This document shows positions 1-16,083 of a DNA stretch of 64,000 nucleotides, in pieces. Each line of letters begins with the position of its first letter. Positions within the stretch are counted from its first letter, which is position 1. Below the pieces are notes generated by a model. That model did no database searches. It was not told where the DNA came from and saw only the letters and a list, made by a program, of their open reading frames with translations. Source of the DNA: a virus; the IMG/VR virus record IMGVR_UViG_3300023179_006727, positions 1-64,000 of that record. The stretch is one strand, 5' to 3'. The position numbers and the translations under genes are program-made.

Positions 1-1580
1 TAGTATTCTAAAGTTGGTTCAGTTGCTGCGTCATTCCATTTATTACCCCATACATAGATGTAAGGTGGTGAAGTTGGATTAGGTCTCCATGCGAAATCTA
101 TTTCTGCACCTTCAATTAATACTTTCCAATTTGTCATATCAGGTAATAGTTCTACTATTTCTGACATATATTTGCGTTCTGTTGCTCCTTCTACGTGATA
201 TTCTAGGACAGGATCAAGTGTAACATCGCAATATTTGTTCCCCCATACATATATATAAGGTGGGCTTGTTGGGTTTGGTCGCCAACTATAATCAAATTTA
301 TTCTTGTTAACTTTAGCCAATTCAACCCATTTATCATACTGCGGTAATAATTCAACAGGTTCAGGCATATATTTTCGTTCAGTTGCGCCTTCTACATAAT
401 ATTCTAGTACAGGTTCAATAGAAGCATCAAAAAATTTATGTCCCCATACATAAATAAAGGGAGGTTCACGTGGATCAGGTCGCCAACTATAATCAAACTT
501 AGTCTCATCAATAGGCAACAACACTTTCCATTTCGACATATCAGGTAATAATTCTACTATTTCTGAAATGTATTTTCGTTCAGTTGCACCTTCTACAATA
601 TATTCTAACGCAGGTTCTATTTCAACAGGTGCGTACTTATGTCCCCATGTATAAATGTATGGTAATTCTGTTGGGTTAGGTCTCCATGTTAAATCAAATT
701 TTTTCTTATTAATCGATAAAAGTTCGTTCCAACATTTAGCAGGTTTTAATATAATATCATCGCCCATATATTTGTGTTCGGTGGCATTAGGCGTTCTATA
801 TTCAACGGTTGGTTTAATTGTGCCACTTACCCATTTATTACCCCATATATAGATATAGGGTGGGTCATGAGGGTGTGGAACCCATTGTGGATCAAGTTGT
901 AAATCTTCAATATCTTCGTGTATGACCCAATGATTTTGATCATTCACTAATTTAAAACGAAAATCATTGATATATTTTCTTTCAGTAGCTTCAGGTTGGT
1001 GATATTCAACCGTAGGCATTTCTTCAGCATTAAGATATTGATTGCCCCACACATAAATATATGGTGGTTCATAAGGATGTGGGTACCATTTTAATAAAGT
1101 TGAATCAATATTTACTTCATGTAAAATTTTCCAATGTTCAGGTAAACTTACAATCGTAGCAACGATAGTCGTTACATATTTTCGTTCTTTTGCGTTTTTA
1201 CATACATATTCAACTGTAGGCATATCAGCAACATATTGATTACCAAATGTCCAAATATAAGGTGGTTCAAATTCATCAGGATGCCAACTAAAATCAAATT
1301 CTATTTTAAATTTCTTATTAACAACCCAATTTTTCTTACTAGGTAAATGAATTGCAATTTGAGTTGATTGAAATTTATAACCTTCATGGTTGGGTACAAT
1401 AAATTTTGGTCCACCACTACGCTGCCATTGTGTACCGAATACATGAATATATGGACGATCATATTTGTCAGGTCGCCAACTAAAATTAAACTTAGTTGTA
1501 TCTAAATTATCGGGAATTTCCCAATAACCTTGCTCCCACAATGCTTCCCTACGATCTAATTCTGTTTGCTCAATATACAT
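1..1580 (-). CDS. Trp/Pro/Tyr-rich tandem-repeat protein (at least 8 repeats of ~66 aa); C-terminus runs off the window; absent from the ORF track
   Basis: Manual translation from ATG at 1580 (MYIEQTELDRREALWEQGYW...) stays open to base 1. The unit FDxSWRPxPxxPPYIYVWGxKx(6)PxLEYxxxGATERKY recurs every ~200 bp. A TAAATA box lies 5 nt upstream. Confidence 0.9.
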   Translation of the reverse strand, partial: MYIEQTELDRREALWEQGYWEIPDNLDTTKFNFSWRPDKYDRPYIHVFGTQWQRSGGPKFIVPNHEGYKFQSTQIAIHLPSKKNWVVNKKFKIEFDFSWHPDEFEPPYIWTFGNQYVADMPTVEYVCKNAKERKYVTTIVATIVSLPEHWKILHEVNIDSTLLKWYPHPYEPPYIYVWGNQYLNAEEMPTVEYHQPEATERKYINDFRFKLVNDQNHWVIHEDIEDLQLDPQWVPHPHDPPYIYIWGNKWVSGTIKPTVEYRTPNATEHKYMGDDIILKPAKCWNELLSINKKKFDLTWRPNPTELPYIYTWGHKYAPVEIEPALEYIVEGATERKYISEIVELLPDMSKWKVLLPIDETKFDYSWRPDPREPPFIYVWGHKFFDASIEPVLEYYVEGATERKYMPEPVELLPQYDKWVELAKVNKNKFDYSWRPNPTSPPYIYVWGNKYCDVTLDPVLEYHVEGATERKYMSEIVELLPDMTNWKVLIEGAEIDFAWRPNPTSPPYIYVWGNKWNDAATEPTLEY

Positions 1581-1585
1581 GACAA

Positions 1586-1617
1586 TATTTACTACCATTA
1601 TGGCAATTCTATAAATA
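1586..1617. promoter_or_regulatory. Divergent pair of T4-type late promoter boxes
   Basis: TATAAATA at 1610-1617 (+), 7 nt before ATG 1625. TAAATA at 1586-1591 (-), 5 nt before ATG 1580. A gp55 homologue is in the window. Confidence 0.7.
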
Positions 1618-1624
1618 TCTTATT

Positions 1625-2680
1625 ATGAATCTTCACAAAACCCCAGGCAAACCCATCCGCACCTATGATGAAACAGGACAATGGCGTGATTGGAGCACAG
1701 ATGAACTCGTTGGCGCAAAACTAAATTACTTACAAGGATGGAAATGCGGAGCAGGTGTTGATAGCCTATTTATTGATATGGACGGGTTTATATGGACTGC
1801 TAGCTGCCGTGTAGGTGGTCAACTAGGTAGTGTATGGGATACTTTTGAAGTACCTAATCAATGGATAGATTGTACCAAAAACGTTTGTTCATGTGGTGCA
1901 GATCTTTTTATACCAAAAGCACAAGATGAAAAGAAAATCATATTGTTACGTCAAAGTCAAGAATTAGATACTTTAATGGATAGGCAAAACAATCAGATTA
2001 CCAATTTTGTAGCAATGGAGCGTACACACGCTAGTAACCAAAAACAAATATATTGGGAAATTGGCAGACGTTGTAATTACGATTGTTCTTATTGTTGGCC
2101 TTGGATTCATAACAATACCGATCCACATAAACCATTAGAAGATTTAATTCGAGCAACTAACTTACTTGAAGAAAAATTTATGCATGGTGAAAGCGTAAAT
2201 TTTATCATTAGTGGCGGCGAACCAACTGTTAATAAAGATTTTCTAGATTGGTTACGATATCTTAACGCATTTGGTCATCATATTAGTTTACATAGTAATG
2301 GATCACGTAAACCTGATTATTATCGTGAAGTTATACATTATGGTGATTTAAACTTATCAGTACATTTTGAGTTTTATGATCGAGCAAAATTTGTTAAAGT
2401 GGTAGAAGCTGTAACAGATGAAAAATATAAAAATAACAATTATAATGTAGGGCATCTTGAAGTAAAGTTTATGATGCCTCCACAATATGTTGAAGAATCG
2501 CTTTCATTAGAGGCAGAGTTAAAACAAATACCACACTTTACAGATTTTTGTACATGGGCTTTTGTTCCTATTCGTGGTGGTATGAGTAATAAATTTTCTA
2601 AACCCGAAGATGATAGTGGTGCTGAAATTATGGAAGGATATGCACCTGAGCATTATGTGCTTTTTGGTGATCGTAAATGA
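1625..2680 (+). CDS. Radical SAM protein with N-terminal SPASM/twitch-like Cys domain
   Basis: CNYDCSYC (CX3CX2C), SGGEP and SNGS motifs; N-terminal GWKC...ASC...CTKNVCSC. Confidence 0.9.
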   Translation: MNLHKTPGKPIRTYDETGQWRDWSTDELVGAKLNYLQGWKCGAGVDSLFIDMDGFIWTASCRVGGQLGSVWDTFEVPNQWIDCTKNVCSCGADLFIPKAQDEKKIILLRQSQELDTLMDRQNNQITNFVAMERTHASNQKQIYWEIGRRCNYDCSYCWPWIHNNTDPHKPLEDLIRATNLLEEKFMHGESVNFIISGGEPTVNKDFLDWLRYLNAFGHHISLHSNGSRKPDYYREVIHYGDLNLSVHFEFYDRAKFVKVVEAVTDEKYKNNNYNVGHLEVKFMMPPQYVEESLSLEAELKQIPHFTDFCTWAFVPIRGGMSNKFSKPEDDSGAEIMEGYAPEHYVLFGDRK

Positions 2681-4032
2681 TTCCAATATATCCTGATCGA
2701 CCTAATACATTATGTAATTATGCGTGGGATTACTTAATGTTTTATATTAGCGAACCAAGTTTCACTTACTGTTGTCGAACATCAAGGAAAAGAATTACTC
2801 CTGAATTATATCAAGCATTTGGTAGTGAATTATTTTCTAATTTACCTGAGCATATTGACCGTAGAAAGAGTTTACTTAATAATGAGCAGCATAGTGATTG
2901 TCATACGTGTTGGAGTTTAGAAAATAATGGGTTTAAAAGTGCACGTAATGATATAAACTTTGAAGGCTACATGGAACGTAATATGGGTATTATACCTAAA
3001 TCTAAGAGTGACTTAGTGAACAATCCACAATTACAGTTATCCACATATGCAAATATAATAGAAATTGTTTTAAACAATACATGTGATGCTAAATGCACTT
3101 ATTGTAGTGAACATTATAGCACACAATGGTATGCAGAAAAGAAAAAATACAACATACCAATGACAAGGGAAAGTAGTCAACTTGGCGAACGTGATCCAAA
3201 AGCTGAATATTACTTTTGGAAATGGTACGAAGAAGTTGGCATGCAAAAACTATTTCGTTTTGGATTTATTGGTGGTGAACCATTAATAACTGATTTGATT
3301 TATGAATGTTTTGACAAATTAATAGAAATTCATGAAAAAAATCCAAGAATAGAGTCTGTTCGTAATATGGGTAATGGCGATTATTTAGATAAAGTTGAGT
3401 TATGTATTACTACTAATCTTAATACTCCTGAATCGTATTTTAAAAAGTTCTTAGAATATTTGCCTAGATTACAACAGCATTTTAACATTATCATTCAAGT
3501 AAGCAGCGAAAATGTTGGAGAAGAATTAGAGTATATCAGGTATGGTGTTAAATGGAATCGATTTAAAAATAATTTAGAAAAGTTGTTTAGTTTACCTGAT
3601 TTAGTTACTATTTCGTTTATGCCATGTTTAAATTTACTTGGATTGCCATCTTTATACAAGTATGTTGAATATTTTAAACAATGTAATGAAAATTATTATC
3701 CATTTTCTATTCATCGCAATATTGTAACTTGGCCCAAAGAACAAAGCCCAATGTCTGCACCAAAAGAATTTGCAAGATATTTAGATAAACCAATCGAAAT
3801 ATTTGAAGAATTAATTAATGACCCAAAATATAAAAAAGCCAAACCTCATCACAATTGGGAAGTATTTAGAGATTTCTTAATCCAAACACGTGAAGCGATT
3901 GAAAATAATCCTCCGATGGATAATATGCAAGATAAAGGTGAAGAAGTGCTGATATTTTTTGAAGAATTAGATCGAAGAAGAAATACGAATTTTATAAAAA
4001 CATTTCCTGAATTTAAAGAGTGGGTTTTATAA
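2677..4032 (+). CDS. Radical SAM protein with N-terminal twitch-like domain
   Basis: CDAKCTYC, IGGEP and TTN motifs; N-terminal C..AW...CC...CHTCW; ATGA overlap with the upstream gene. Confidence 0.9.
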   Translation: MIPIYPDRPNTLCNYAWDYLMFYISEPSFTYCCRTSRKRITPELYQAFGSELFSNLPEHIDRRKSLLNNEQHSDCHTCWSLENNGFKSARNDINFEGYMERNMGIIPKSKSDLVNNPQLQLSTYANIIEIVLNNTCDAKCTYCSEHYSTQWYAEKKKYNIPMTRESSQLGERDPKAEYYFWKWYEEVGMQKLFRFGFIGGEPLITDLIYECFDKLIEIHEKNPRIESVRNMGNGDYLDKVELCITTNLNTPESYFKKFLEYLPRLQQHFNIIIQVSSENVGEELEYIRYGVKWNRFKNNLEKLFSLPDLVTISFMPCLNLLGLPSLYKYVEYFKQCNENYYPFSIHRNIVTWPKEQSPMSAPKEFARYLDKPIEIFEELINDPKYKKAKPHHNWEVFRDFLIQTREAIENNPPMDNMQDKGEEVLIFFEELDRRRNTNFIKTFPEFKEWVL

Positions 4033-5194
4033 TAACTAGCTCATTTCGCAATTGTGGAACAATATCAGCGATTTTTTTATCACGCAATTTTTCAAGTGTT
4101 TTGGTTCTATGTACCCATTGATTATGTAATTCATTACCTAAATAACCATTTTTTAAATAATCAATAACAGGTGAATATAAATCATTATAATTTAAATGAG
4201 TGTAATATTCTATTAATGCTGAGAGCGTTTCAGGTTGCAAAACTAAAGCAGATTGATTTTCAGGACGTAAAACAAAATGTTTAAAGTTCGGTCTTTTAGG
4301 TATATGTTCTTTTTGTGGATATAATGTGAGGATATTGTTTTGCCACCATTGTCTTAACTCTTCAAGATTAAAAATATTATAAACAGAAATTGCACAGCTT
4401 AAGGAAAAATGATTTAAATTTTTTAGTTTACTAAATCTAATCAAAGTTTTTGTTACATTGTCAATATCACTTGTATATTGCGTATTAGGTGCAAACCTAA
4501 TCCAAGTATTTAAGTCACCAATACCATCGATACTACAAACAAAAATAACACTTTTAGCTTGTTCAACTAATTCTAAAATAGGTTCATTAATCACAGTACA
4601 ATTTGTTGTAATCATAATATTGACATTATGTAGTTGATTAATTTCTTTTAATTTTTGCAATACAAGTAAATTTTCTTTATTTAAAAATGGTTCACCACCC
4701 TTAAGCCATAAAGTCATTAAGTTAGACAAATCAATATTATCTAATAATTTAGTAGCAATTTCTCTATTAATAGGTTCAATTTTATGTTTACCATCTTTAT
4801 TCCAACCATTCTTATTAGATAACTCTATCCAAGCACTACTCCAATCTTCATTACACATTGCACAAGCTAAGTTACACGTATTAGTACTACTATATTCTAA
4901 ATATAAAATTTTTTCAGTTTCATCATAAGGGATAGCATTATAAACATTTAATCTTACACTTGTTTTAGTTTTATCTTCACGATTTTTACAAAAACGACAA
5001 CTTGGGTGCCATCTACCTTCGAGCATATGTTTCTTAACATCTTGCATAAAATTGCTTGATCTTATTTCTTGAATAGTTTGCTCATTTAAATTACCACATG
5101 GATCTTTATAATCCCATGCACAGCAAGGATTTACACTTTTATTTGGATTAATAGTTAAACTATTAAATGGTGCGCTACATAATACTTTTTTCAT
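4013..5194 (-). CDS. Radical SAM protein with N-terminal twitch-like domain
   Basis: CNLACAMC, KGGEP and SIDG motifs; N-terminal CSAPF...PCC...CRFC. Confidence 0.9.
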   Translation of the reverse strand: MKKVLCSAPFNSLTINPNKSVNPCCAWDYKDPCGNLNEQTIQEIRSSNFMQDVKKHMLEGRWHPSCRFCKNREDKTKTSVRLNVYNAIPYDETEKILYLEYSSTNTCNLACAMCNEDWSSAWIELSNKNGWNKDGKHKIEPINREIATKLLDNIDLSNLMTLWLKGGEPFLNKENLLVLQKLKEINQLHNVNIMITTNCTVINEPILELVEQAKSVIFVCSIDGIGDLNTWIRFAPNTQYTSDIDNVTKTLIRFSKLKNLNHFSLSCAISVYNIFNLEELRQWWQNNILTLYPQKEHIPKRPNFKHFVLRPENQSALVLQPETLSALIEYYTHLNYNDLYSPVIDYLKNGYLGNELHNQWVHRTKTLEKLRDKKIADIVPQLRNELVIIKPTL

Positions 5195-6540
5195 AACATT
5201 CTCGGTATAGTATTTAAGGCAATTTCATAAAATTCAGAAAATGTTTCTCTAAATATTTCGTTTCTATTTTCATCAATGGTTCTATTGTATTCTAAAAATT
5301 TAATCCATTGTTTGTGATCATATGAAGTTGAATTCATAAAATCAATAATGTTTTTTATACTTGCGCTTTGTTTATGATATTTTACATTGGAATTATTAAA
5401 ATTTAATAATTTATTTGTAATTATTTTTTTAATACTATCAGGTAAGTTTGTTATATTGGAATGTAAGGGATGATGCAATAAATTTAATACAAATTCAAAG
5501 TTTAAGTAAGATAATTGTTCAATAATTTCATCAAGATAATATATATTGTACATACTAATAGTTAGATATAGATAAAAACGACCATCTACATTATATAATT
5601 CAGAAAGAAGTTTAAAGTTTTCTAAGTTACTAATTACTTCATCATATATTGCATTCTTACGTTGGTATTCAAAACGTTTACCTATATCATCTATACTAAA
5701 ATTTACAACAACAAAATCAAATTGTTTCCATTTTATAACTAAGTCATCACTAAAATGTGTTCCATTTGTGTTATAACATAAATTTTGATCCTTTGATGAT
5801 CCGCTATTAATCATAATATCTAATATTTGATCATGTTCCTGTTGCATCAATGGTTCGCCACCATAAAACTCTATGCGTAAAATACCATCAGCCCATGATG
5901 TTAATATTTTTACATTTTCTTCATTAGTTAATAATTTTTCTTTGGCATTTTCCGCCCATACTACCATAGCACGTTTATCAGCCCAACCCAAATCTTTATA
6001 ATCTTTAATCCATTGTGTGCTTGACCATGGACCACATATTCTACATCTTAAATTACATAAATTACTTAATTTTAAATCTAGATTGGTTGGTTGCCCCGAA
6101 AATGCTCTTTTAAAATGTCTTTTAATATCATATCTTGAATCAGGATTTTGTAACCAATTTTTGTTATAAATCTGTCGCAAACTAATAATATTGCTTTTTT
6201 CCTCATTCCAACATACTTTACATTTTTCAGGTTTTTCATTACGCATAAAATCATCACGTAATTTATTCATTTCTTCACTATTAAATAATTGTACCACTGT
6301 TGAATTATGTAATGTTACTTTAGAATCATCTAACTTAAAAGCATCGTATTTACAACATGGACGACTAGTTCCTTCTGCTGTGATTTCCATATTAGTAAAT
6401 GGAGCAACACAAAAATTACTAGGCAAGAATTTATGATAATCATTATCAAAGTTCTTTTTTATTCCCCAATCATACTCGGCATCAATATGTTCAAATAATC
6501 TATCCTCTTCGATTGCTTTTTCGTATTCATCCCAATTCAT
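5191..6540 (-). CDS. Radical SAM protein with N-terminal twitch-like domain (start at ATG 6540 preferred over 6555)
   Basis: CNLRCRIC, YGGEP and NTNG motifs; CVAPF...RPCC...CKVCW. ATG 6540 forms an ATGA overlap with the upstream stop. Confidence 0.88.
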   Translation of the reverse strand: MNWDEYEKAIEEDRLFEHIDAEYDWGIKKNFDNDYHKFLPSNFCVAPFTNMEITAEGTSRPCCKYDAFKLDDSKVTLHNSTVVQLFNSEEMNKLRDDFMRNEKPEKCKVCWNEEKSNIISLRQIYNKNWLQNPDSRYDIKRHFKRAFSGQPTNLDLKLSNLCNLRCRICGPWSSTQWIKDYKDLGWADKRAMVVWAENAKEKLLTNEENVKILTSWADGILRIEFYGGEPLMQQEHDQILDIMINSGSSKDQNLCYNTNGTHFSDDLVIKWKQFDFVVVNFSIDDIGKRFEYQRKNAIYDEVISNLENFKLLSELYNVDGRFYLYLTISMYNIYYLDEIIEQLSYLNFEFVLNLLHHPLHSNITNLPDSIKKIITNKLLNFNNSNVKYHKQSASIKNIIDFMNSTSYDHKQWIKFLEYNRTIDENRNEIFRETFSEFYEIALNTIPRML

Positions 6541-7952
6541 AATAGTTTTTTGCACTCTTCTAAAAATGATATCATTTCAGGGAAAGTTTCTTCATAATTT
6601 AAATTACGTCTTTGGCGCATCTTTTCAACATTCAACGCAAACTCTTTCCTAGCATCATCACTTTTTTCAGGATTCTCGATACCCTTTTTTACCGTATATA
6701 AAAAGCTAATATAATGATCCCATCGACCAAATAAGTTATACGTGCCAGGTGTCACCTTCGCACTTTTTAATTCATTCATCATAATATCAATAGTTTCTAT
6801 AACATACTTTGAATATTCTACAGGCAAAATGTATGGACTTAACCAATGTGGATGACTGACTTGATTTTGACGTAAATGTATTCTACGATTAGTCCTGTTT
6901 TGTAAATCAATAATCCACCTAAAGAAGTTTGGCAAATCTGATATACATAATGCATTTAATGCTATTTGTAAATTAAAAATTATACGTTTTTGGTCAGGGT
7001 CAATTAAGTTAATAAACTCAATATAATTTTCTATATTGTTAGTCATGATTTCCCAATCTGTGCCTGTTCTAATATATTCTGCACGTTGTCCAATACTTTC
7101 ACAACTGACATTAAAATCTAAAGTAAACTGTTCCACACCAACAATTCTCATCGTAGTATCTAACCAACGATCATAAAACTTCTTTGGTGTATTAAAATTA
7201 GTAACAATAGAAAAATCAATATTTTTTTGTTCTGTCTTATGATCCTCGTAAAACTCACAAATACGATCAGTATAGCTATAAAATTTATCAATAATTAATG
7301 GTTCACCACCGATAAAGTTAATACAGTAAGTGTTCCATCCACTTTCGTTTTCAAACCAATCCCACCAAAATGTTTCATAAACTGTATCTTTGATCTTTGG
7401 TAGTTCAGTCTCCATTTCTTCAGGTTTAATTTCACCATACTTTAATCGTTCTGCCGCCCATTGTGAACTATAATGATGATGACAGTACAAACACTTTAAG
7501 TCACATATGTTACCCAAACTAATTTCAATCATGTTAGTATGTGGTAATCTAGATAACATCTCAAATTCATCAGAGGTAAGATTATATAGTTTTTCTTTTA
7601 ATTCATCACGTGATAATGTAGGCCAAAGTTTTTTTGATTGCACAAAATTGACAAAACGATCCCATCCTGTTCTTGGACTTTTTGCACCGCTATCTTCAAT
7701 ATCCCAACATACTGAACAGGCATCATTACGAATACCACGTAACATGTCTTTACGCACATTTACAATAGGTGGGAAATGTGTAAACAATCCACGCTCTAGT
7801 CGCCAATCTTCAGGTAATATTTTATGACTTTTACTACGACAACAATTTCTTAATTCATTACGTGAAATGTTTAATACACTATAATCCCATGCAAATTGGC
7901 ATACAGTATCTTTAATATCACCTTCACGTTTAATCTCAATGACTTGATTCAT
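6537..7952 (-). CDS. Radical SAM protein with N-terminal twitch-like domain; paralogue of 2677..4032
   Basis: CDLKCLYC and IGGEP motifs; CQFAWDY...CCRS...CSVCW; HYSSQW matches HYSTQW of the paralogue. Confidence 0.9.
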   Translation of the reverse strand: MNQVIEIKREGDIKDTVCQFAWDYSVLNISRNELRNCCRSKSHKILPEDWRLERGLFTHFPPIVNVRKDMLRGIRNDACSVCWDIEDSGAKSPRTGWDRFVNFVQSKKLWPTLSRDELKEKLYNLTSDEFEMLSRLPHTNMIEISLGNICDLKCLYCHHHYSSQWAAERLKYGEIKPEEMETELPKIKDTVYETFWWDWFENESGWNTYCINFIGGEPLIIDKFYSYTDRICEFYEDHKTEQKNIDFSIVTNFNTPKKFYDRWLDTTMRIVGVEQFTLDFNVSCESIGQRAEYIRTGTDWEIMTNNIENYIEFINLIDPDQKRIIFNLQIALNALCISDLPNFFRWIIDLQNRTNRRIHLRQNQVSHPHWLSPYILPVEYSKYVIETIDIMMNELKSAKVTPGTYNLFGRWDHYISFLYTVKKGIENPEKSDDARKEFALNVEKMRQRRNLNYEETFPEMISFLEECKKLL

Positions 7953-7961
7953 AAGTTTTAT

Positions 7962-9116
7962 TTAGTTTAAGCCTAGTACCTCGCTCCATTTTGGGAAAGT
8001 ATCCACAAAATCCTGATTCCTAAAATTGTCTAATATTTCAAGTTCATCAAGAAATTTTTGCCATTCTCCTATTTTTTCGGGTAAATTTAAAAAGTTTAAA
8101 ATATCAGGAAAATTTTCTAATCTTTCTTGTAATTGTGCTTTAACAAAATGAGGTAAATTTCTTATGTTGTATTTTTCGTTTTTGTGTAATATATTGTAAT
8201 GAACAAATAAATGCTTACTTTTTGCCCACGCAGCATATTCAGGTAAGTAGTATACATTAAAATTACTTACGGTACAAAATAATATTACTTCTATATTGGG
8301 ATGTTTATCTCGTAAATTGATAAACTTATCTACATTTTTAAGTATTACATTCCAATTACTAGGAAAACGATGATATTCTTGTCTTTCCTCTAAATCATCT
8401 ATACTTAAACATATCGTTGTTTTTTTAAATTGTTTAAGAAAATTTATTAAAGTTTCGTTCCAATGTGTTACATTAGTATTAATTAACATTGTTTTTTCAG
8501 ATAAAGCTGATTGTTCACTTAATAAACTTAGAATTTTAACATTTTCAGGTGATGTCATGGGTTCACCTCCTGTCATTTCAATGTGTTGAATGTTACTTGA
8601 CCATTGCGATATTATCTTTTCATTTTTAGTATCAGTGATTTTATCTTGTGTCCAATAGTTTGATTCAGGTAAATTAATATTCCATAACAATTTATATTCT
8701 TTATTATATGTTGAGGATGCTTGTGGACCACATATACGGCATTTTAAATTACAAACATTGTTAAGTTTTAAATCTAATACTAGTGGAGAATCAACAGTAA
8801 GTTTAGTAAAATCAACTTTGCTAATGTCTATTTTTTTGGTTTCAACAAATGTTTGTCGATAACTTTTAATACCACCTTGTTCGTCATTCCAACACATGCT
8901 ACATTCATGAGGTTCTTCACCATTAATGAATGCTTGACGTAATTTTTGCCAATCATCTGAGTTATATAATTTATTTAATTGACCCCTATAAATAAAAGGT
9001 AATTTATGATTAGTTTGTGCATTAGGTTGATAATATCTACAACATGGTCTTAGACTGCCATTAACATCGATTGATAAATTAATCCATGGTAACGGGCAAA
9101 ACTTTTTATTGGACAT
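7962..9116 (-). CDS. Radical SAM protein with N-terminal twitch-like domain
   Basis: CNLKCRIC and TGGEP motifs; CPLPW...RPCC...CSMCW. Confidence 0.9.
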   Translation of the reverse strand: MSNKKFCPLPWINLSIDVNGSLRPCCRYYQPNAQTNHKLPFIYRGQLNKLYNSDDWQKLRQAFINGEEPHECSMCWNDEQGGIKSYRQTFVETKKIDISKVDFTKLTVDSPLVLDLKLNNVCNLKCRICGPQASSTYNKEYKLLWNINLPESNYWTQDKITDTKNEKIISQWSSNIQHIEMTGGEPMTSPENVKILSLLSEQSALSEKTMLINTNVTHWNETLINFLKQFKKTTICLSIDDLEERQEYHRFPSNWNVILKNVDKFINLRDKHPNIEVILFCTVSNFNVYYLPEYAAWAKSKHLFVHYNILHKNEKYNIRNLPHFVKAQLQERLENFPDILNFLNLPEKIGEWQKFLDELEILDNFRNQDFVDTFPKWSEVLGLN

Positions 9117-10077
9117 TGATCTGATCAGTTACCAATTCTTTTGTTGTCATGATATCAAAATTACAATGACACATTTTCTTGGTACATACTACAGGATCTT
9201 CAGGTATCATTAAATTTTTATCGTATATACTACCTACACAATCACCTTCTTTGCACCATCCACGATAAATTCTACCATCCATATCTACAATAATTTGCTC
9301 TACACCTGCGTAACAATCCCATCCACTCCAATCATTAGTTTTATCATTAATAAAACGTTGTGCAGTAAATGATTCCTCTTTACCATCTTCATAAATCTTT
9401 CGCATTGCACCACGATAATATGGAAATTCTTTAGTGTGCTTGATATGCTTTATTACTAAATCATATTGACGATCAAATATCTTATGTTGGATATCACTAT
9501 AATCATATAAAGTATCGCCAAAATCATGAATTAGTGGTTGTAATGCCATACTAAGATCACCTAAAGCCTTAATTTTATTTGCTAAAGAATAACATTGCTC
9601 AAACTTTGCAGGACTCATCATAATATTAACGTGTGTTCTAAGATCTTTATGGACAGTTTTAATTACGTTCATAAAATGATCGGGGTCGCCTTCTTCAGGA
9701 TGAAAGCTTAAACATACATGATCAAAGTATTCTTTATTTTCTTCCCACCAACGAATGGTTCTACTACCGTTACTAATTAGTCCAATTTTAATATCCAAAT
9801 CTTTACAAAATTGGCAAACATCAGTAAAATGTTTCCATAAGGTAACTTCGCCACCTGTGAATTCAAAGTATAATTTACGTGGAAATACTTGATCTGCTAC
9901 TCTAGCGATAAAACTTTTTATTTCATTAGGGTCGGGCCACCCTACGGTACCATTATGTAATGCTTCAGGACAATAACTACAACTGAAATTACATGTATTT
10001 CCTATACACCAATTTACAACGAACCATTTTTCGTGTTCGGGATTATTATGAACTAGTTTAAAATATTTTTTAATCAT
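9106..10077 (-). CDS. Radical SAM protein with C-terminal SPASM/twitch-like domain
   Basis: CNFSCSYC, TGGEV and SNGSR motifs; C-terminal GWDC...GWC...CTKKMCHC. Confidence 0.9.
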   Translation of the reverse strand: MIKKYFKLVHNNPEHEKWFVVNWCIGNTCNFSCSYCPEALHNGTVGWPDPNEIKSFIARVADQVFPRKLYFEFTGGEVTLWKHFTDVCQFCKDLDIKIGLISNGSRTIRWWEENKEYFDHVCLSFHPEEGDPDHFMNVIKTVHKDLRTHVNIMMSPAKFEQCYSLANKIKALGDLSMALQPLIHDFGDTLYDYSDIQHKIFDRQYDLVIKHIKHTKEFPYYRGAMRKIYEDGKEESFTAQRFINDKTNDWSGWDCYAGVEQIIVDMDGRIYRGWCKEGDCVGSIYDKNLMIPEDPVVCTKKMCHCNFDIMTTKELVTDQINVQ

Positions 10078-10082
10078 GCTAT

Positions 10083-10811
10083 TTATTTATGTAAAAAGGA
10101 ATGTATAAGTTGACGAACTTCATCTGCGTTGATGATTTGATCATAAGGATTTTCAAATCCCTGTTTTTCAATCTTTATATCATTTACAAAACTTTTATTA
10201 AAAATTTTTGATAAATTATGAATCGCATTTTCATAGTTAATAATAGGACCTGTTATGCCAACCTTTTCTGCATATTGAAAGAAATAATTACTTGATTGTA
10301 CGAGCCATTTACTATTACTAACAACTGATAAATCTACTGTAACTTTGTCACTAAACCTTTCTTTATTTTTAAATTGTGTCCATCGATTAGTTGTTTGTGC
10401 TATAATATAACTTAATAAATGATTTTCCATATCCAACCTTTTAATAAGAAAAAAAGAAAAATTATTTTCCTTTAAATGTGACACAATGGTTGACATATGT
10501 TTTATTAAATAATGATATGGAAATACTCTTAATACCAATGGCATTGTTGTGTTTTGTTTTAGTGTACTATTAATATATTCAATTCGTCTAGGTAAAATTT
10601 CTAAATCATCATATTCAGGTAAAAATTTACAATATAATTCCCCTTTTTCGTTACAGACAGGCAACGGTTGCATATTTTTACCTAAACCACTTGTATAAGG
10701 TTCATATAAATCTAGAATTTTTTGTTCAGAATTAGTTTTTATTAATTCAGCAATATATTGACTACCACATCTTGGTAACCCAAATAAACAGATTCTGCTG
10801 TACATTACCAA
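10083..10811 (-). CDS. Putative PAPS-dependent sulfotransferase (Stf0-like)
   Basis: N-terminal GLPRCGSQ resembles the 5'-PSB loop; IKRLDMENHLLS resembles the 3'-PB motif; C-terminal INYE. Confidence 0.65.
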   Translation of the reverse strand: MVMYSRICLFGLPRCGSQYIAELIKTNSEQKILDLYEPYTSGLGKNMQPLPVCNEKGELYCKFLPEYDDLEILPRRIEYINSTLKQNTTMPLVLRVFPYHYLIKHMSTIVSHLKENNFSFFLIKRLDMENHLLSYIIAQTTNRWTQFKNKERFSDKVTVDLSVVSNSKWLVQSSNYFFQYAEKVGITGPIINYENAIHNLSKIFNKSFVNDIKIEKQGFENPYDQIINADEVRQLIHSFLHK

Positions 10812-11737
10812 CCTTCTTGTTCACGAATGATATCAATTTCTTTAATCATGGCACCACGATTATGCCATTTTTGACTGACATAATCTTTAAAAAACTTACT
10901 TTGTTCTTTATTTAATTCTACAATAGACAACCCTAAATCATGCTTTAATATTTCACCCAATCGTATATTATCTTCATCGGAACAATGTTGATGCTCACCC
11001 CATAACTCATCTAAGTATTTGAAATCACGCACTAAGGTATAAACCCAATCATTTTTTACCATAAGATAATAAGTTCCCATTCTTGCACCATACATTGCCC
11101 ACCAACCATACTCTTCATCCCTACCAATATTTTGCCAAATGTTTAAGTTTTGCATGTTACGAGGCCAAAGATGGGTACTAAATTCTTTTACAGTAGATGG
11201 TGGGTTACCATCCCTTGTACATAATTTTACACCTTCACGAAATCCTGCTCTCCATGCTTGTTTTGGGGTATAATTAATATATGTGGTTGAAAAGCAATCA
11301 TGCATAGGCCAATACATAGGATCAAAACAAAATTCTATATTAGTCCTTGCTTCACCTGTAGTATTTTCATGTGTTTTCATCGCTAGTACAAACTTTTTTG
11401 TCCAACAACTCATACCACCATTACCATAATATAAGCCATTTACGTTATTACGTGCTCGCCAACGAAATTGTGCATGTTGACTAATTTCATCTAAGTTTAA
11501 TTGTAAGGTAAAAAATGATTCATTAGGCATATTATCACCATCAATTAGAACAAATCGCTCTGTAGTGCTTGCGTTTGCTGCTGCTTTATGTGCGGCATCT
11601 GATCCAAATACACCATCAACACGCACTGCCCATGGCACCATGTCTTTTATTTTAAGCCAAAATTCTTCTTTTTGTGGTTCGTCGTATGAAAGATATATAC
11701 AATCTAAGTCTGCAATATCTACAATATGATTATTCAT
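10805..11737 (-). CDS. Putative GT-A fold glycosyltransferase
   Basis: N-terminal strand IYLSYDEP, AHKAAANAS helix, then FVLIDGDN (DXD motif) and a GGM motif. Confidence 0.65.
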   Translation of the reverse strand: MNNHIVDIADLDCIYLSYDEPQKEEFWLKIKDMVPWAVRVDGVFGSDAAHKAAANASTTERFVLIDGDNMPNESFFTLQLNLDEISQHAQFRWRARNNVNGLYYGNGGMSCWTKKFVLAMKTHENTTGEARTNIEFCFDPMYWPMHDCFSTTYINYTPKQAWRAGFREGVKLCTRDGNPPSTVKEFSTHLWPRNMQNLNIWQNIGRDEEYGWWAMYGARMGTYYLMVKNDWVYTLVRDFKYLDELWGEHQHCSDEDNIRLGEILKHDLGLSIVELNKEQSKFFKDYVSQKWHNRGAMIKEIDIIREQEGW

Positions 11738-12095
11738 CCTGCAAATCTTCTACCTTAACCGTGTCAACAAAAATATGTTCTGAATCATCATCAACAAGTA
11801 TGTTCCAATTTTCGGGATGTACCTTAAATCCCACCTTAGAACGTTTAAAAATAAGAAAGCGTGGATGTACAGGTCTAACTAATTTACCATCAATTACTTT
11901 TACTTGAAAACTAGCGATTTCGTAATCTTTATGTTGTATAACAATATAATCACCTTCTTCTTCACCTGCTGAATAAAAAAGTGGTAAAGATGTATCTTTA
12001 TCATAGTAAAGACGATATTCAATAGGTTTTCTTTCAACAAAATTGTTGACTAGTTTAAACGCTTCAATAATGTTTTTTAATTCGGGATCAATCAT
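11730..12095 (-). CDS. Hypothetical protein
   Basis: 121-aa ORF overlapping both neighbours in the operon. Confidence 0.8.
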   Translation of the reverse strand: MIDPELKNIIEAFKLVNNFVERKPIEYRLYYDKDTSLPLFYSAGEEEGDYIVIQHKDYEIASFQVKVIDGKLVRPVHPRFLIFKRSKVGFKVHPENWNILVDDDSEHIFVDTVKVEDLQDE

Positions 12096-12891
12096 AATAT
12101 GGACTAAAAGTATTTACTAAAGATTTATGTACATAATGAACAGGATAAAATTGACTGTAATTACAAATTTTCATTTGTCCATCTGCAAGAATTTCAAAAA
12201 ACAATTCTTTTGTCCAATCATCACTAACAATGTTTGACATTCTAGGTTTCATATGTGCCCATTTTAACGGATTGATAGCTGATGGAATTATACATTGTTC
12301 TTCACCATGTAATATTGTAGCTATAGCATAAACCACATCGGTTGTTGCAATTTCGTTATCAGGACAATATCGTAATATTGTTTTAAAATTATCCCACTTC
12401 TCAAAAATGTTTCTAACTGTTCCAAAAAATGATTCAGCTACTTTTCCTTTCTTGAAATAAGTAATACCATTATAGATATCAGGTAAATCATTTTTATCAA
12501 ATATAAGTCTATAATCACGAACATGGCTTGGTTGATTTTTATAATTGACGCATCCATGTGCAATTGCCAAATCTCTATTTGCACATGCTTCCCACCATGA
12601 ATCTATATTTCTAGTAATCAGAACATCGCTCTCAATTTTAAAAGTTTCATCATAGGGTGATGCATCATACACTTGCCAATCATTAACCAATTTCCATTCA
12701 TCACTTGAACGATCCATATGTGGAAATTCAATAATTTGATCGAAGTGATTATCGTCAATAACAATATCAGTTAGTAATGATATAGGAAAAGTAGGATTAG
12801 TTTTGCGTATGCTTTTTGCGAGTAAACGTGCACAGGCAACATAATCTGTTGTTGTATTGTTTTGTGCGAGTATAATTATACCTTTACTCAT
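12088..12891 (-). CDS. Putative GT8-like glycosyltransferase with degenerate DXD (ESD)
   Basis: KGIIILAQN..DY, LAKSIR, ASPYDETFKIESD; paralogue of 12884..13684. Confidence 0.65.
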   Translation of the reverse strand: MSKGIIILAQNNTTTDYVACARLLAKSIRKTNPTFPISLLTDIVIDDNHFDQIIEFPHMDRSSDEWKLVNDWQVYDASPYDETFKIESDVLITRNIDSWWEACANRDLAIAHGCVNYKNQPSHVRDYRLIFDKNDLPDIYNGITYFKKGKVAESFFGTVRNIFEKWDNFKTILRYCPDNEIATTDVVYAIATILHGEEQCIIPSAINPLKWAHMKPRMSNIVSDDWTKELFFEILADGQMKICNYSQFYPVHYVHKSLVNTFSPYYD

Positions 12892-13684
12892 TTATCATAT
12901 CCAATAAATTTAATTTATTCATACAATGAAAGTCTGTTTGACCAAAGTTTAATTTATAAGGTCGCATTGTATTACTAACAATTTTGTTAAATTTAAACTC
13001 AAATTCTGTTTGATCAATTTTAGCTACTTCGACATCAGGATAGACATTTAATAAAGGCCATTTTATTGTGTAATCATCTATGCCCAAATGTCCACTTACT
13101 GTGTTTAATGCGATTGTTAAAGCATAATCATTACGATATAATTGATTATTAAATTTATATAATCCTGCATAGTAAATGTAATTCTTTTGAATCATTTTCC
13201 ACATATCAAATAATGCACGTGTGAAATCATCTTTTTTAAATGTAATAACTGTTGCCCAACACATTTCTAACTGATATTGACCAATAAATGTTTCTGTAAT
13301 AGTGCTATATTTCGAGACTGAATTAGTTGTATTATGACATAAAAAACTAGAGTTTATATCCCATAGTTTATTTAAATGATTGGTGTTAATAATATAATCT
13401 GTATCGAGTAATAGAGTATGGTCATATGGTGTTAGATCGTATGCCATATGTCGATCAAAGTTTTTCCAAAAAATTAAATTACCATTTTTATCCGCTCGTT
13501 GTTGGTATATTTCATTCTTATGTAATATAACTTGATCAAATGATTCATCAACTGTTTCATTGTCAGTGATTAAAGTTACAGGTAAATTTAGAAATTGTTT
13601 TACACGTTGTGCAGTAAATTTGGCTATTTTAACATAGTCAATTTCTTCAGTATTATTTGCAATTAGAACAATTCCACGATTCAT
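12884..13684 (-). CDS. Putative GT8-like glycosyltransferase
   Basis: RGIVLIANN..DY, LTPYDHTLLLDTD (DXD motif), RNDYAL, C-terminal FHCMNK. Confidence 0.7.
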   Translation of the reverse strand: MNRGIVLIANNTEEIDYVKIAKFTAQRVKQFLNLPVTLITDNETVDESFDQVILHKNEIYQQRADKNGNLIFWKNFDRHMAYDLTPYDHTLLLDTDYIINTNHLNKLWDINSSFLCHNTTNSVSKYSTITETFIGQYQLEMCWATVITFKKDDFTRALFDMWKMIQKNYIYYAGLYKFNNQLYRNDYALTIALNTVSGHLGIDDYTIKWPLLNVYPDVEVAKIDQTEFEFKFNKIVSNTMRPYKLNFGQTDFHCMNKLNLLDMINE

Positions 13685-13989
13685 CGTTGTGTTTTTACAT
13701 TATCTAATTCTTCACTCCATTGTGCCATAACTATATTATAGTTTTCAATTAGTGAACTAAGTAGTTCTTTACGATTGACAAGGACAACGTTTTTATATTC
13801 ATCAACAAGATGAATTTCATCAGGTAATTGTTCTACCGCAAGAAATGAAATAAATTGTGGATTAGAAATCCAATAACCACCTTGACTTACAATAAGTAAT
13901 TTACTTTTGAACTTTTCTTCTAGTAAATTTTTGTGCAATCTATGATCATATCTTGATCTTACAGTTTTAATAATTTGATTAATATCCAT
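13681..13989 (-). CDS. Hypothetical protein; first gene of the glycosyltransferase operon
   Basis: 102-aa ORF with an ATGA overlap downstream; TAAATA at 13995-14000, 5 nt before the ATG. Confidence 0.85.
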   Translation of the reverse strand: MDINQIIKTVRSRYDHRLHKNLLEEKFKSKLLIVSQGGYWISNPQFISFLAVEQLPDEIHLVDEYKNVVLVNRKELLSSLIENYNIVMAQWSEELDNVKTQR

Positions 13990-14090
13990 AACACTATTTA
14001 ATGTTAAATATTAAGCTATATTTTTTTTATTGTTTTTTTAGACCTAATTTTTATAATGTTTAATGCATCTTAAAAAATATAAATCTAGAT

Positions 14091-14113
14091 AAGGTAAATT
14101 ATTAATTTACCTT
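14091..14113. terminator. Perfect 10-bp hairpin, likely terminator (degenerate copy at ~15303-15323)
   Basis: AAGGTAAATT-att-AATTTACCTT downstream of 14142..14396; both copies are flanked by TTTGTGGTCGTT. Confidence 0.55.
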
Positions 14114-14141
14114 TGTGGTCGTTTATTAATAACTGAGCTTT

Positions 14142-14396
14142 TTATTGTTCAGATGGCTGTGGTAGTAACATATTTTGATTCAATAGATCAGCATCACGAT
14201 TTCTATAACTAATCGTGGTTTCATCATCTACCAATTGTTCATCAACCAAAATACTATACATATAAGTTTGATAATTTTTATTAGTGGCAGAAGGTATTAA
14301 AATCTCATCTGTATCTTTATCATTTAATTCATAATGACCTTCACGTATCGACCTAACTCTATTATCTTTATCAAGTTTAAAAAATCTTTGAAACAT
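14142..14396 (-). CDS. Small acidic protein, possible tail-fibre assembly chaperone (copy B)
   Basis: MFQRFFKLD start, AAAGGA Shine-Dalgarno; paralogue of 15366..15623. Function is inferred from position only. Confidence 0.75.
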   Translation of the reverse strand: MFQRFFKLDKDNRVRSIREGHYELNDKDTDEILIPSATNKNYQTYMYSILVDEQLVDDETTISYRNRDADLLNQNMLLPQPSEQ

Positions 14397-14418
14397 ATTA
14401 TTTCCTTTATATTTTATA

Positions 14419-14841
14419 TTATGTTATATCTTCTTCAATTACAACAAAACTCCAACTAATAGTGTAAGTATTAGTACCCCCCAATTTAATGTATCTTCCT
14501 GCTGGCAAATACAAAGGCCCATAATTCATGAATTCTAACATAGTCCCTATTCCAGCTACACCACTAATAACCCCGGTTGCACCCGTCCATCCAGGACCTT
14601 CATTAAATATAATGTTCAAAATTCTAAAATATTGAGACCCAGCCGATTGAGTAAAAATCGTTCCAGTAATATTTAAACTTCCTGCAATAATGTATGCGTA
14701 ATTCGGGTCGGTATTAGCAAACGGCGCATAAAAATATGCATTTCCAACTACTTTAGCTGTTCTACCACTTGGTACCGTGTAGATAGTTGTCTCAGAGTTT
14801 GCTAGAGCCGCTCCCGCAAATGATTTTATATATCTAGCCAT
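14419..14841 (-). CDS. Small beta-rich putative tail-tip/receptor-binding protein (copy B)
   Basis: MARYIKSF...YTVPSGRTAK...NYGPLYL...VVIEEDIT; SD and ATAAATA upstream. Confidence 0.75.
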   Translation of the reverse strand: MARYIKSFAGAALANSETTIYTVPSGRTAKVVGNAYFYAPFANTDPNYAYIIAGSLNITGTIFTQSAGSQYFRILNIIFNEGPGWTGATGVISGVAGIGTMLEFMNYGPLYLPAGRYIKLGGTNTYTISWSFVVIEEDIT

Positions 14842-14892
14842 TTTCTTTTTTCCTTTTTTGTATTTATTATATCATATAATAATGCTTTAATT

Positions 14893-15015
14893 TTAAACTA
14901 TTTTAGAATTATAACTAAACGCAACAAATGGAGTTTGTGTATTTAGATTGAACGCATTAAATGCTTTAAATGGCAAATCTTCTTCACTTGAAATAATTGT
15001 TAATGATAATGATTG
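14893..15015 (-). pseudogene. Start-less relic of the last 40 codons of the Ig-repeat tail-fibre gene
   Basis: Reads QSLSLTIISSEEDLPFKAFNAFNLNTQTPFVAFSYNSKIV*, versus EPLTLTIVAASTIDLPFKEFDAFSLNTQTPFVAFDYDPLIT* in 16084..17604. Confidence 0.85.
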
Positions 15016-15227
15016 ACAAGGACAACGTTTTTATATTCATCAACAAGATATATTTCATTAGGTAGTTGTTCTACTGCAAGAAACGAAATAAATTGTTGGT
15101 TAGAAATCCAATAACCACCTTGACTTACAATAAGTAATTTACTTTTAAATTTTTCTTCAAGTAGATTTTTGTGCAATCTATAATCATATCTTGATCTTAC
15201 AGTTTTAATAATTTAATTAGTATCCAT
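15011..15227 (-). pseudogene. Truncated copy of gene 13681..13989 with a nonsense mutation at codon 5
   Basis: ATG GAT ACT AAT TAA (CAA changed to TAA), then IIKTVRSRYDYRLHKNLLEEKFKSKLLIVSQGGYWISNQQF...; still has TAAATA at 15233-15238. Confidence 0.9.
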
Positions 15228-15365
15228 GATACTATTTAATATTAAATATTAAGGTGTATTTTTTTCTATTTATGGTTTATTTTAATTAAATAAAAACCTT
15301 CAAAAGTAAATTAATTTACCTTTGTGGTCGTTAATTGAGATGGTAGCTTGCTAAACATGAGGTTT

Positions 15366-15623
15366 TTATTCTTGAGATTGCGGTAATTGCATCATAATTT
15401 GTTTCTTGTAAAACTCTTCATCGTCCTTTCGCTTACTTATTGTAACTCCATCTTCTACTAACTGTCCATTAACAAAAATACAATGCATATAATTTTTGAA
15501 CTCTTTATGATTTGCAGAATGTATTATAATTTCATCTGCATGTTTGTCATCCAATTCATAATGCCCTTCACGAACTGATACAACTCTATTACCTTCATCT
15601 AGTTTAAAAAATCTTTGAAACAT
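15366..15623 (-). CDS. Small protein, possible tail-fibre assembly chaperone (copy A); start at 15623 preferred
   Basis: ATG 15623 gives MFQRFFKLD, matching the paralogue, and has an AAAGGA SD. Confidence 0.75.
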   Translation of the reverse strand: MFQRFFKLDEGNRVVSVREGHYELDDKHADEIIIHSANHKEFKNYMHCIFVNGQLVEDGVTISKRKDDEEFYKKQIMMQLPQSQE

Positions 15624-15645
15624 ATTATTTCCTTTATCATTTATA

Positions 15646-16038
15646 TTATGTAATATCTTCTTCAATTACAACAAAATTATACATCATGTTTTGAAAATTA
15701 GAATATACGCTTACAACACTACCAGTTGCTAAATACAACGGACCATAATTACAATAATTTGGGATTATTTGAATCGAGGATCCGTACATCGCCATTGCCG
15801 CTGGAAACATTCCACCTTCATTGAACATAATTAGCGGTACTTGGTAACTATAACTTGTAGTTGCATAAGTACCACTATAAAATGTACTGTTGACTTCAAC
15901 ATAAGACCTAGTACCCCCAGCATCATTCCAACCCCCCATTTTGCAACTTCCGAGTAATTTAGCTGTTCTACCAGCTGGCACAGTATAAACACTTGCAGAC
16001 AGTGTATTACCACTAAAAGATTTTATATATCTAGCCAC
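15646..16038 (-). CDS. Small beta-rich putative tail-tip/receptor-binding protein (copy A)
   Basis: GTG start with SD and GATAAATA; same termini as 14419..14841 but a divergent core. Confidence 0.75.
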   Translation of the reverse strand: MARYIKSFSGNTLSASVYTVPAGRTAKLLGSCKMGGWNDAGGTRSYVEVNSTFYSGTYATTSYSYQVPLIMFNEGGMFPAAMAMYGSSIQIIPNYCNYGPLYLATGSVVSVYSNFQNMMYNFVVIEEDIT

Positions 16039-16083
16039 TCTCTTTTTTCCTTTTTATTATTTATCATATGATATTATGTTTAA

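Follow-up and report, generated by a model that had tools for sequence, protein, structure and literature searches.

Chloroviruses, giant viruses and a few mycobacteriophages are known to encode glycosylation systems of their own, and to our knowledge none of these systems uses radical S-adenosylmethionine (radical SAM) chemistry. Here we describe an island of seven radical SAM genes, followed by sulfotransferase-like and glycosyltransferase-like genes, in the first 64 kb of the 101.7-kb IMG/VR record IMGVR_UViG_3300023179_006727; the whole of this 64,000-nucleotide stretch is referred to below as the window. The record (CheckV completeness 27%) encodes portal, capsid and baseplate families of T4 type. 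We rate the island as a variant form of virus-encoded glycosylation machinery, and tentatively read it as a soluble pathway that would assemble a sugar chain and then edit it by radical chemistry.

A comparable arrangement is the 'host recognition cluster' of pelagimyophages and cyanomyophages, a hypervariable, fibre-adjacent region with GT8-type and radical SAM cassettes (Zaragoza-Solas et al. 2020, PMC7029224). Position is one point of likeness, as both lie next to tail-fibre genes in the structural part of the genome of a T4-like aquatic phage; the combination of GT8 and radical SAM genes is the other. In its account of the cluster, that paper notes the genes only and proposes modification of the host O-chain, with no analysis of the family, fold or synteny of the radical SAM set; the freshwater (Fonsibacter) phages are described there as lacking radical SAM and lipopolysaccharide genes, whereas the present freshwater phage has seven radical SAM genes. 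Virus-encoded glycosylation of the virion has been described for mycobacteriophage Che8 (Freeman et al. 2023, as cited in PMC11256854). Like the present virus, Che8 and PBCV-1 have GT-A enzymes of their own, and gene I of the island matches both the Che8 glycosyltransferase (E 2.4e-4) and PBCV-1 A64R (Z 8.2). Those two systems are without radical SAM enzymes or a sulfotransferase, and the virion glycan has been shown there, whereas here it is proposed from the genes. A literature search on phage islands of radical SAM and glycosyltransferase genes found no paper devoted to this island type.

Open reading frame (ORF) calling of the window gave the gene letters used below: R, the radical SAM set A to G, and the following proteins H to M. 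Two operons, A-B on the plus strand and M-to-C on the minus strand, converge on each other, with the 3' ends of B and C overlapping tail to tail by 20 nucleotides (nt), and from M to C the neighbouring genes either overlap or are spaced by 5-9 nt. Exactly one CX3CX2C motif is present in each of A to G and none in the six proteins H to M. By BLASTP, the radical SAM proteins fall into the groups A/G, B/E (28.8% identity over 469 aa) and C/D/F (D/F 30.9% over 401 aa; C/F 25.8%; C/D 25.4%). An earlier inspection, hereafter the sequence-only reading, had described seven consecutive CX3CX2C proteins, two converging operons and three paralogue groups, and all three descriptions were borne out. When the island proteins were scanned for Kyte-Doolittle hydropathy, none had a 19-residue window above 1.6, the maximum being 1.53 in B. 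Since the island is without a predicted membrane helix, flippase or polymerase, its chemistry is probably cytoplasmic. In this respect it differs from GtrABC-type seroconversion, in which a membrane flippase and membrane glucosyltransferases take part, whereas the island proteins lack a transmembrane hydropathy score.

Pfam Radical_SAM matched all seven proteins A to G, although B (27.5 bits) and E (29.2 bits) stayed just below the 29.5-bit cut-off. Five of them are members of the catalogued NCBIfam family NF033640 (N_Twi_rSAM, 'twitch domain-containing radical SAM protein'), scoring 209-322 bits against a curated cut-off of 170: B (2677..4032, plus strand, 210.8 bits) and, all on the minus strand, C (4013..5194, 215.0 bits), D (5191..6555, 321.7 bits), E (6537..7952, 209.2 bits) and F (7962..9116, 302.4 bits). 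This family identity had been overlooked in the sequence-only reading, in which the motif and the paralogue groups were correctly recognized. The CX3CX2C motif of B to F lies at residues 107-167, C-terminal to a Cys-rich twitch domain with five conserved Cys in the pattern C-x17/18-CC...C-x2-C, and Pfam SPASM also matched N-terminal to the radical SAM core in C (6-70), D (49-116) and F (7-76). BtrN, which handles a sugar-like substrate in a glycoside pathway, has a single auxiliary cluster, located in a truncated SPASM domain (a C-terminal twitch). The single auxiliary cluster is the point of likeness; the twitch is C-terminal in BtrN but N-terminal in B to F. No specific sequence relation of the N-terminal-twitch (N-twitch) profile to BtrN was found among its solved relatives, the closest of which were viperin and MoaA at E 1.9e-5, both generic relatives.

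Clear orthology to known cofactor pathways such as MoaA and QueE had been named in advance as the result that would speak against a glycan pathway. All seven proteins scored far below the cut-offs of the cofactor-enzyme equivalogs (best scores: MoaA 42.2 vs 284 bits, QueE 18.1 vs 206, NirJ 28.7 vs 515), and they are therefore not orthologues of these cofactor enzymes. The N-twitch family is large: of 8,000 candidates that were scored, at least 4,584 proteins matched it at E up to 1e-5, and on viral contigs its presence was confirmed in 590 of 600 candidate stretches.

The remaining two enzymes, A (1625..2680, plus strand) and G (9106..10077, minus strand), stayed well below the NF033640 cut-off (28.2 and 18.3 bits vs 170), and thus A and G, outside NF033640 while B to F are inside, form a separate family. 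BLASTP aligned A with G in two segments, 32.6% over 89 aa and 29.5% over 166 aa. In an alignment of 8 A-type and 11 G-type sequences, the first approximately 100 residues of the A type matched the last approximately 100 residues of the G type, including five conserved Cys, and the radical SAM cores aligned in reverse order relative to this Cys module. These alignments indicate that A and G are circular permutations of each other, with the twitch-like five-Cys module N-terminal in A and C-terminal in G, and the island therefore contains both arrangements of an auxiliary-cluster module within one family. The pairing of the two genes as paralogues had been proposed before; the permutation had escaped notice. 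G is strongly conserved, with 63-88% identity among the best 120 of 610 matching clusters. Complex prediction for I with G, run without control runs, gave a score of 0.00 against the mark of 0.32.

A link between the radical SAM enzymes and sugar transfer is suggested by gene fusions in related phage contigs. In four loci (L089:1405-4230, L091:4928-7744, L096:6256-8520 and L097:5267-7873), one ORF of 754-941 aa encodes W/Y-rich repeats together with a GT-A domain of I type, its DGD kept, and a G-type radical SAM domain, and in one locus an N-twitch domain is fused to a G-type domain (L012:5575-7983). Because of these fusions, the radical enzymes appear to be tied to glycosyl transfer. Such repeats are also found in R, of which the window contains the N-terminal 532 aa (1..1598, minus strand), the gene extending beyond the window start. 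A full-length relative of this giant repeat protein has 1290 aa; at least nine repeat units (WRPxPxxPPYIYVWG), each of about 66 aa, precede an I-like domain at its C-terminus, in which F-A-K replaces DGD. Among 17 long R forms, a conserved F-A/G-K replaces DGD in 13, and the remaining 4, fused to G-type radical SAM, keep it. The repeats of R are near-identical and W/Y-rich, and no match to R was obtained in Pfam, PHROG or PDB. Taken together, the features particular to the window are the permuted pair A/G, the Stf0-like cassette H described below, R with its altered DxD, and the fusions in its relatives.

The AlphaFold model of I (10805..11737, minus strand), built on a 31-sequence alignment, reached a predicted local distance difference test score (pLDDT) of 90.8. 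Residues 4-156 adopt a GT-A fold in this model (Z 9.4 to B4GALNT1, 9.1 to STIV A197, 8.4 to SunS, 8.2 to PBCV-1 A64R), followed by a helical C-terminal domain; Foldseek E-values against GT-A enzymes were about 2e-3, and nucleotidyltransferases, which share this fold, scored close behind (Z 7.4-8.4). The DxD motif D66-G67-D68, which follows the fourth strand, is invariant in all 31 aligned sequences, and in the viral library the Che8 glycosyltransferase was the third match and the best named one. The I family comprises 1,517 representative clusters at E up to 0.001. When 17 long members were scanned, a GT-B domain stood in front in 5, Sel1 repeats were present in 4, weak Glycos_transf_2 (GT2) matches in 2 (E 6.9e-7 and 5.8e-4) and nothing in 6. 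These results support the prediction that I is a GT-A glycosyltransferase-like protein. In one related contig, the small conserved protein J (11730..12095, minus strand) and I form a single fusion protein, with J as its N-terminal part.

K (12088..12891) and L (12884..13684), both on the minus strand, are paralogues of each other (29% over 110 aa), L having a D-T-D motif. A profile of 47 sequences from this family was compared with PDB, and glycogenin was found in 19 of 19 matches; the profile aligns to the N-terminal half of glycogenin, with the DxD region on the LDADTLV strand. In the Atlas, the neighbours of K and L are Nucleotid_trans and GT8 clusters at 0.96. K and L are thus probably GT8-like, judging from these profile matches. 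Profile-profile comparison gave no relation between the K/L family and I. The operon begins with the small conserved protein M (13681..13989, minus strand). Three glycosyltransferases had been proposed in this block: the GT-A fold of I agrees with the proposal, K and L are weakly GT8-like, and a fourth, I-like domain in R had been missed.

H (10083..10811, minus strand) gave a model with pLDDT 88.3, for which the top VIA match was the trehalose sulfotransferase Stf0 (PDB 1tex; Z 11.3, 193 of 242 residues, 10% identity), and 3-O-sulfotransferases matched residues 5-242 with Z 9.4-9.9 over 184-193 aa. Sulfotransferases covered the entire length of the model, whereas kinases covered only about 150 residues; Foldseek alone had no power to separate the two for H. 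Sulfotransferases that use 3'-phosphoadenosine 5'-phosphosulfate (PAPS) are characterized by a 5'-phosphosulfate binding (PSB) loop and an R-x7-S motif for the 3'-phosphate. In the alignment of H, GLPRxGSQY, R125 and S134 are invariant in 10 of 10 sequences and the Walker-A lysine is absent; the spacing between the latter Arg and Ser is R-x8-S, as against R-x7-S in sulfotransferases. H thus resembles Stf0 in its best structural match and in a PSB-loop-like GLPRxGS without Walker lysine, and differs in its 10% identity and in the lack of a match at the level of hidden Markov models (HMMs): H and 10 alignment members had no Pfam or NCBIfam sulfotransferase match at E up to 10, nor any PDB sequence match. 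The H profile did match a sulfotransferase-like gene that stands among N-twitch genes beside CysD/CysN on a Crocinitomicaceae chromosome (hhalign E 2.3e-5, 118 columns), and GLPRSGS is common to H and the Pfam-level sulfotransferase of the same genome. These observations support H as a predicted Stf0-like sulfotransferase. The sequence-only reading had placed sulfotransferase-like and glycosyltransferase-like genes next to the radical SAM set, and structure models and profiles support this, without Pfam or NCBIfam matches.

The Pfam-level sulfotransferase belongs to a second sugar block on the same record (approximately 89.2-97.3 kb; L169:7178-15325), which directly follows a giant RCC1-repeat gene. 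This block also encodes a 2-oxoglutarate (2OG)-Fe(II) oxygenase, an FkbM/RfbT-like methyltransferase, a second methyltransferase, DUF4422, DegT and a nucleoside diphosphate (NDP)-sugar epimerase/dehydratase.

For comparison, 81 viral loci were kept and 78 bacterial loci were fetched, the latter mostly from metagenome-assembled genomes (MAGs) of Bdellovibrionota and Bacteroidota. The viral loci contain 442 N-twitch ORFs in total, 2-8 per locus with a median of 5, and the composition of the window, two of B/E type and three of C/D/F type, recurs in 41 of the 81. Fibre-like genes, M-L-K-J-I, the radical SAM genes and, at the far side, R is the usual gene order. Homologues of I were present in 70 of these loci, of K in 53, L in 46, J in 37, M in 30 and R in 23, and hence no other partner of the radical SAM genes is as well conserved as I. 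The window represents a minority form of the island, as A and G were each found in only 12 loci and H, an accessory cassette, in 3. I is 50-61% identical in 58 loci, whereas close orthologues (at least 70%) of B, C and E were seen in just two loci, with identity of at most 37% elsewhere. By this comparison the transferase core appears conserved while the radical SAM set is strongly diverged, and the glycan would therefore differ between related phages.

The enzymes added in related islands were identified by scanning one representative per cluster. A carbamoyltransferase was found in 56 viral loci, a DegT aminotransferase in 12, an NDP-sugar epimerase/dehydratase in 12, a B12 radical SAM protein in 11, an adenosine 5'-phosphosulfate (APS)-kinase-like protein in 9, a PNP_UDP_1 nucleosidase (5'-deoxyadenosine-type nucleosidase family) in 7 and a SAM synthetase in 4. 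Bacterial neighbourhoods were scanned in 9 of the 78 loci, those on long contigs: the arrays were flanked by glycosyltransferases in 5 of 9 and by some carbohydrate-tailoring enzyme in 7 of 9, the adjoining genes including GT2, GT4, GT90, UbiA-family, carbamoyltransferase, SGNH, sulfotransferase and CysDN. Several MAG contigs (L040, L049, L050, L055, L061, L073, L077 (one 'Elusimicrobia' MAG), L044 and L052) are short and consist nearly entirely of N-twitch genes or carry K and I homologues. They resemble phage contigs binned with bacteria, and the bacterial range of the family is therefore probably overstated. Among cultured phages, a protein search with I and K found only Ralstonia phage RsoM2USA, which has M-L-K-J-I in a block annotated as hypothetical, and no near-identical DNA was found in the phage collection.

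We then considered the signals upstream of the island genes. Of the 37 gene starts in the whole window, 12 have TAAATA among the 35 nt that precede them, as against 1.0 expected (binomial P ~2e-10). Six of these genes belong to the island (A, C, E, G, J and M) and six to the structural and fibre region, so that the motif is common to the island and the structural genes. The sequence-only reading had noted it before the gene starts at 1625, 7952, 10077 and 13989, which was confirmed, and it also precedes those at 5194 and 12095. Upstream of M, TAAATA is accompanied by a 152-nt spacer with an AT-rich hairpin, spotted by eye. TAAATA may serve as a late promoter of the island, in which case the island would be expressed late. 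The full T4 late-promoter consensus TATAAATA precedes just 2 of 37 starts, those of A (1610..1617, plus strand, 8 nt 5' of the A start) and of the gene at 41314-45252, and is under-represented in the window (9 copies vs 20.4 expected); 5 of the 9 copies are antisense inside a giant ORF at 22338-41258 (minus strand), a single frame of 6,306 codons between fibre-like and baseplate genes. Sigma-70-like sites were not enriched (108 vs 111.1 expected), and a terminator scan found no canonical terminator.

Variation inside the island was observed directly on a 5.6-kb contig from another lake sample, whose sequence matches M-I and the beginning of G at approximately 95% identity. On this contig, 655 nt of H (window 10090-10746) are swapped for 1,322 unrelated letters (run X7; low depth in X2), indicating a cassette exchange inside the island. 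The lack of read cover over approximately 5.3-9.3 kb of the window in run X7 carries no evidential weight. The same 5.6-kb contig has 190 letters in place of window 13962-16840. Two tandem copies of a gene pair are located at 14142-16038 (minus strand), each encoding a protein of 130-140 aa (MARYIKSF start) and one of 84-99 aa (MFQRFFKLD start); the larger gene of each pair is preceded by ATAAATA and a purine-rich stretch, and no homologue of the pairs was found in 158 related loci at E 1e-5. Elsewhere in the window, a 627-aa protein with a LAGLIDADG-type homing-endonuclease domain is encoded at 54547-56430 (plus strand), between baseplate genes and an SbcCD-like nuclease pair.

On these grounds we propose, tentatively and at somewhat short of an even chance, that the island specifies a soluble cytoplasmic pathway in which a sugar chain is assembled and then edited by radical chemistry, most probably on a virion or fibre protein. 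We infer the catalytic steps, donor sugars, sulfation, timing of expression and acceptor as follows. I, K and L, as GT-A enzymes, would transfer sugars from nucleotide sugars to the acceptor, perhaps joined by the I-like domain of R, and H would add sulfate from PAPS. The seven radical SAM enzymes, five N-twitch in a set of two plus three and the pair A/G, would each attack a different C-H position of the sugars and abstract its hydrogen, with the twitch cluster as electron relay; the sugars might thereby be oxidised, epimerised or deoxygenated, or gain a new bond, in reactions that need no oxygen. The most probable acceptor would be the phage's own fibre or another virion protein, produced at the same late time; such an acceptor is favoured because of the position of the island, the common upstream motif and the precedent of Che8. 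A phage glycan pathway of building and tailoring had been outlined in the sequence-only reading, together with a call for HMM, structure and neighbourhood analysis; these analyses yielded the glycosyltransferase and sulfotransferase folds and the NDP-sugar enzymes of related islands, which agree with building and tailoring, while its virion target and late timing we likewise infer.

Several observations weigh against this proposal. None of the proteins H to M, including the predicted transferases H, I, K and L, had a Pfam or NCBIfam match on its own. The fold of H is also near that of nucleotide kinases, the first Foldseek match being guanylate kinase (E 5.4e-4). For K and L, the glycogenin matches are weak (E 0.022-1), Pfam GT8 was matched by 0 of 47 family members, and only 2 of 47 touched any Pfam glycosyltransferase family (E 0.016). 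The literature search found no publication on NF033640 or on the product, substrate or acceptor of its members. The second-best NCBIfam matches of C and F are the peptide maturases YhhB (4.9e-10) and PapB (2.7e-9), and proteins may therefore be substrates. In structural genes TAAATA is located 24-29 nt upstream, with a purine-rich stretch after it, whereas at A, E, G and M it stands just 8-13 nt before the start codon, so close that transcripts from a late promoter of T4 type at this place would be nearly leaderless. The late promoters of the sequence-only reading are thus upheld as to the motif common to island and structural genes, but not as to its spacing at these four genes. Linkage to fibre genes may just reflect a hypervariable insertion site in common, and the published account of such islands reads them as modifying the host O-chain, not as decorating the virion (PMC7029224).

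If that published reading of the pelagimyophage GT8 and radical SAM cassettes were extended to this island, its enzymes would remodel the host envelope polysaccharide (O-chain or capsule), acting on lipid-linked intermediates at the cytoplasmic face, so as to prevent competing phages from superinfecting the cell, or to keep progeny from adhering to debris. The polysaccharide-type clusters around the bacterial homologues, with their UbiA-family and GT2/GT4 genes, fit such a role, and the strongly diverged radical SAM set recalls O-antigen diversity. We regard host remodelling as unlikely, however, as the island is without membrane protein, flippase, polymerase or priming transferase, its upstream motif is common to structural genes and late expression would be poorly timed for exclusion, and the block keeps its position behind fibre genes in most of the 81 loci. 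Many SPASM/twitch enzymes are peptide maturases, and the radical SAM set might instead cross-link or epimerise the repeats of R or a fibre protein, with the transferases acting separately. R, whose repeats number at least nine, are nearly identical and are rich in W and Y, is found beside the island in 23 of 81 loci, and the weak YhhB and PapB matches of C and F point the same way. These matches reach 31-39 bits, however, against cut-offs of 340-445, and Pfam finds no leader-recognition domain; the 9 bacterial loci show sugar enzymes and no precursor-like gene was seen, though short ORFs were not searched; and in many architectures the repeats accompany the I-like domain as an N-terminal accessory, which fits binding better than being a substrate. 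Maturation of proteins by the island therefore appears quite improbable.

The product might also be a small sugar-based molecule, free and soluble (resembling an aminoglycoside, or else a modified nucleotide sugar), that acts on the host or on competitors. Such a product would be compatible with the solubility of all island proteins, and the mix of carbamoyltransferase, DegT, dehydratase and twitch and B12 radical SAM proteins in the relatives is one that we take to resemble aminoglycoside clusters. That the island makes such a compound is nevertheless hard to credit: no exporter or self-resistance gene was seen in it, and the fixed fibre linkage and the giant repeat protein with a transferase-like domain suit a macromolecular acceptor better. 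T4-like phages also glycosylate their DNA, and radical SAM enzymes act in known thymidine hypermodification pathways, so that glycosylated, sulfated and radically edited bases might protect the phage DNA from host nucleases; the kinase-like fold of H is in line with this. T4 alpha- and beta-glucosyltransferases have the GT-B fold, however, whereas I and K/L are GT-A-like, and no Pfam match to a T4 DNA glucosyltransferase or base-hydroxymethylase was obtained in the 101.7-kb record, itself 27% complete. With an upstream motif common to structural genes and a bacterial context of polysaccharide type as well, DNA hypermodification must be considered very improbable.

Within the favoured proposal, in which the island decorates the virion, a bolder version may be formulated. 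The N-twitch enzymes might represent a new class of glycan editors, working in fixed teams of five on an assembled sulfated chain on the fibre proteins, with R holding the chain and with coupling to the G-type enzyme. We consider this version improbable as it stands. If true, cassette swapping would let giant aquatic phages make surface 'serotypes', a viral counterpart of O-antigen diversity generated by oxygen-independent radical chemistry. Identification of the NF033640 substrate would give a function to a family of thousands, whose members stand in groups of about five next to sugar transferases in many large aquatic phages. It would also reveal what abundant lake and ocean phages place on their own or the host surface, and could uncover new C-H editing reactions on sugars.

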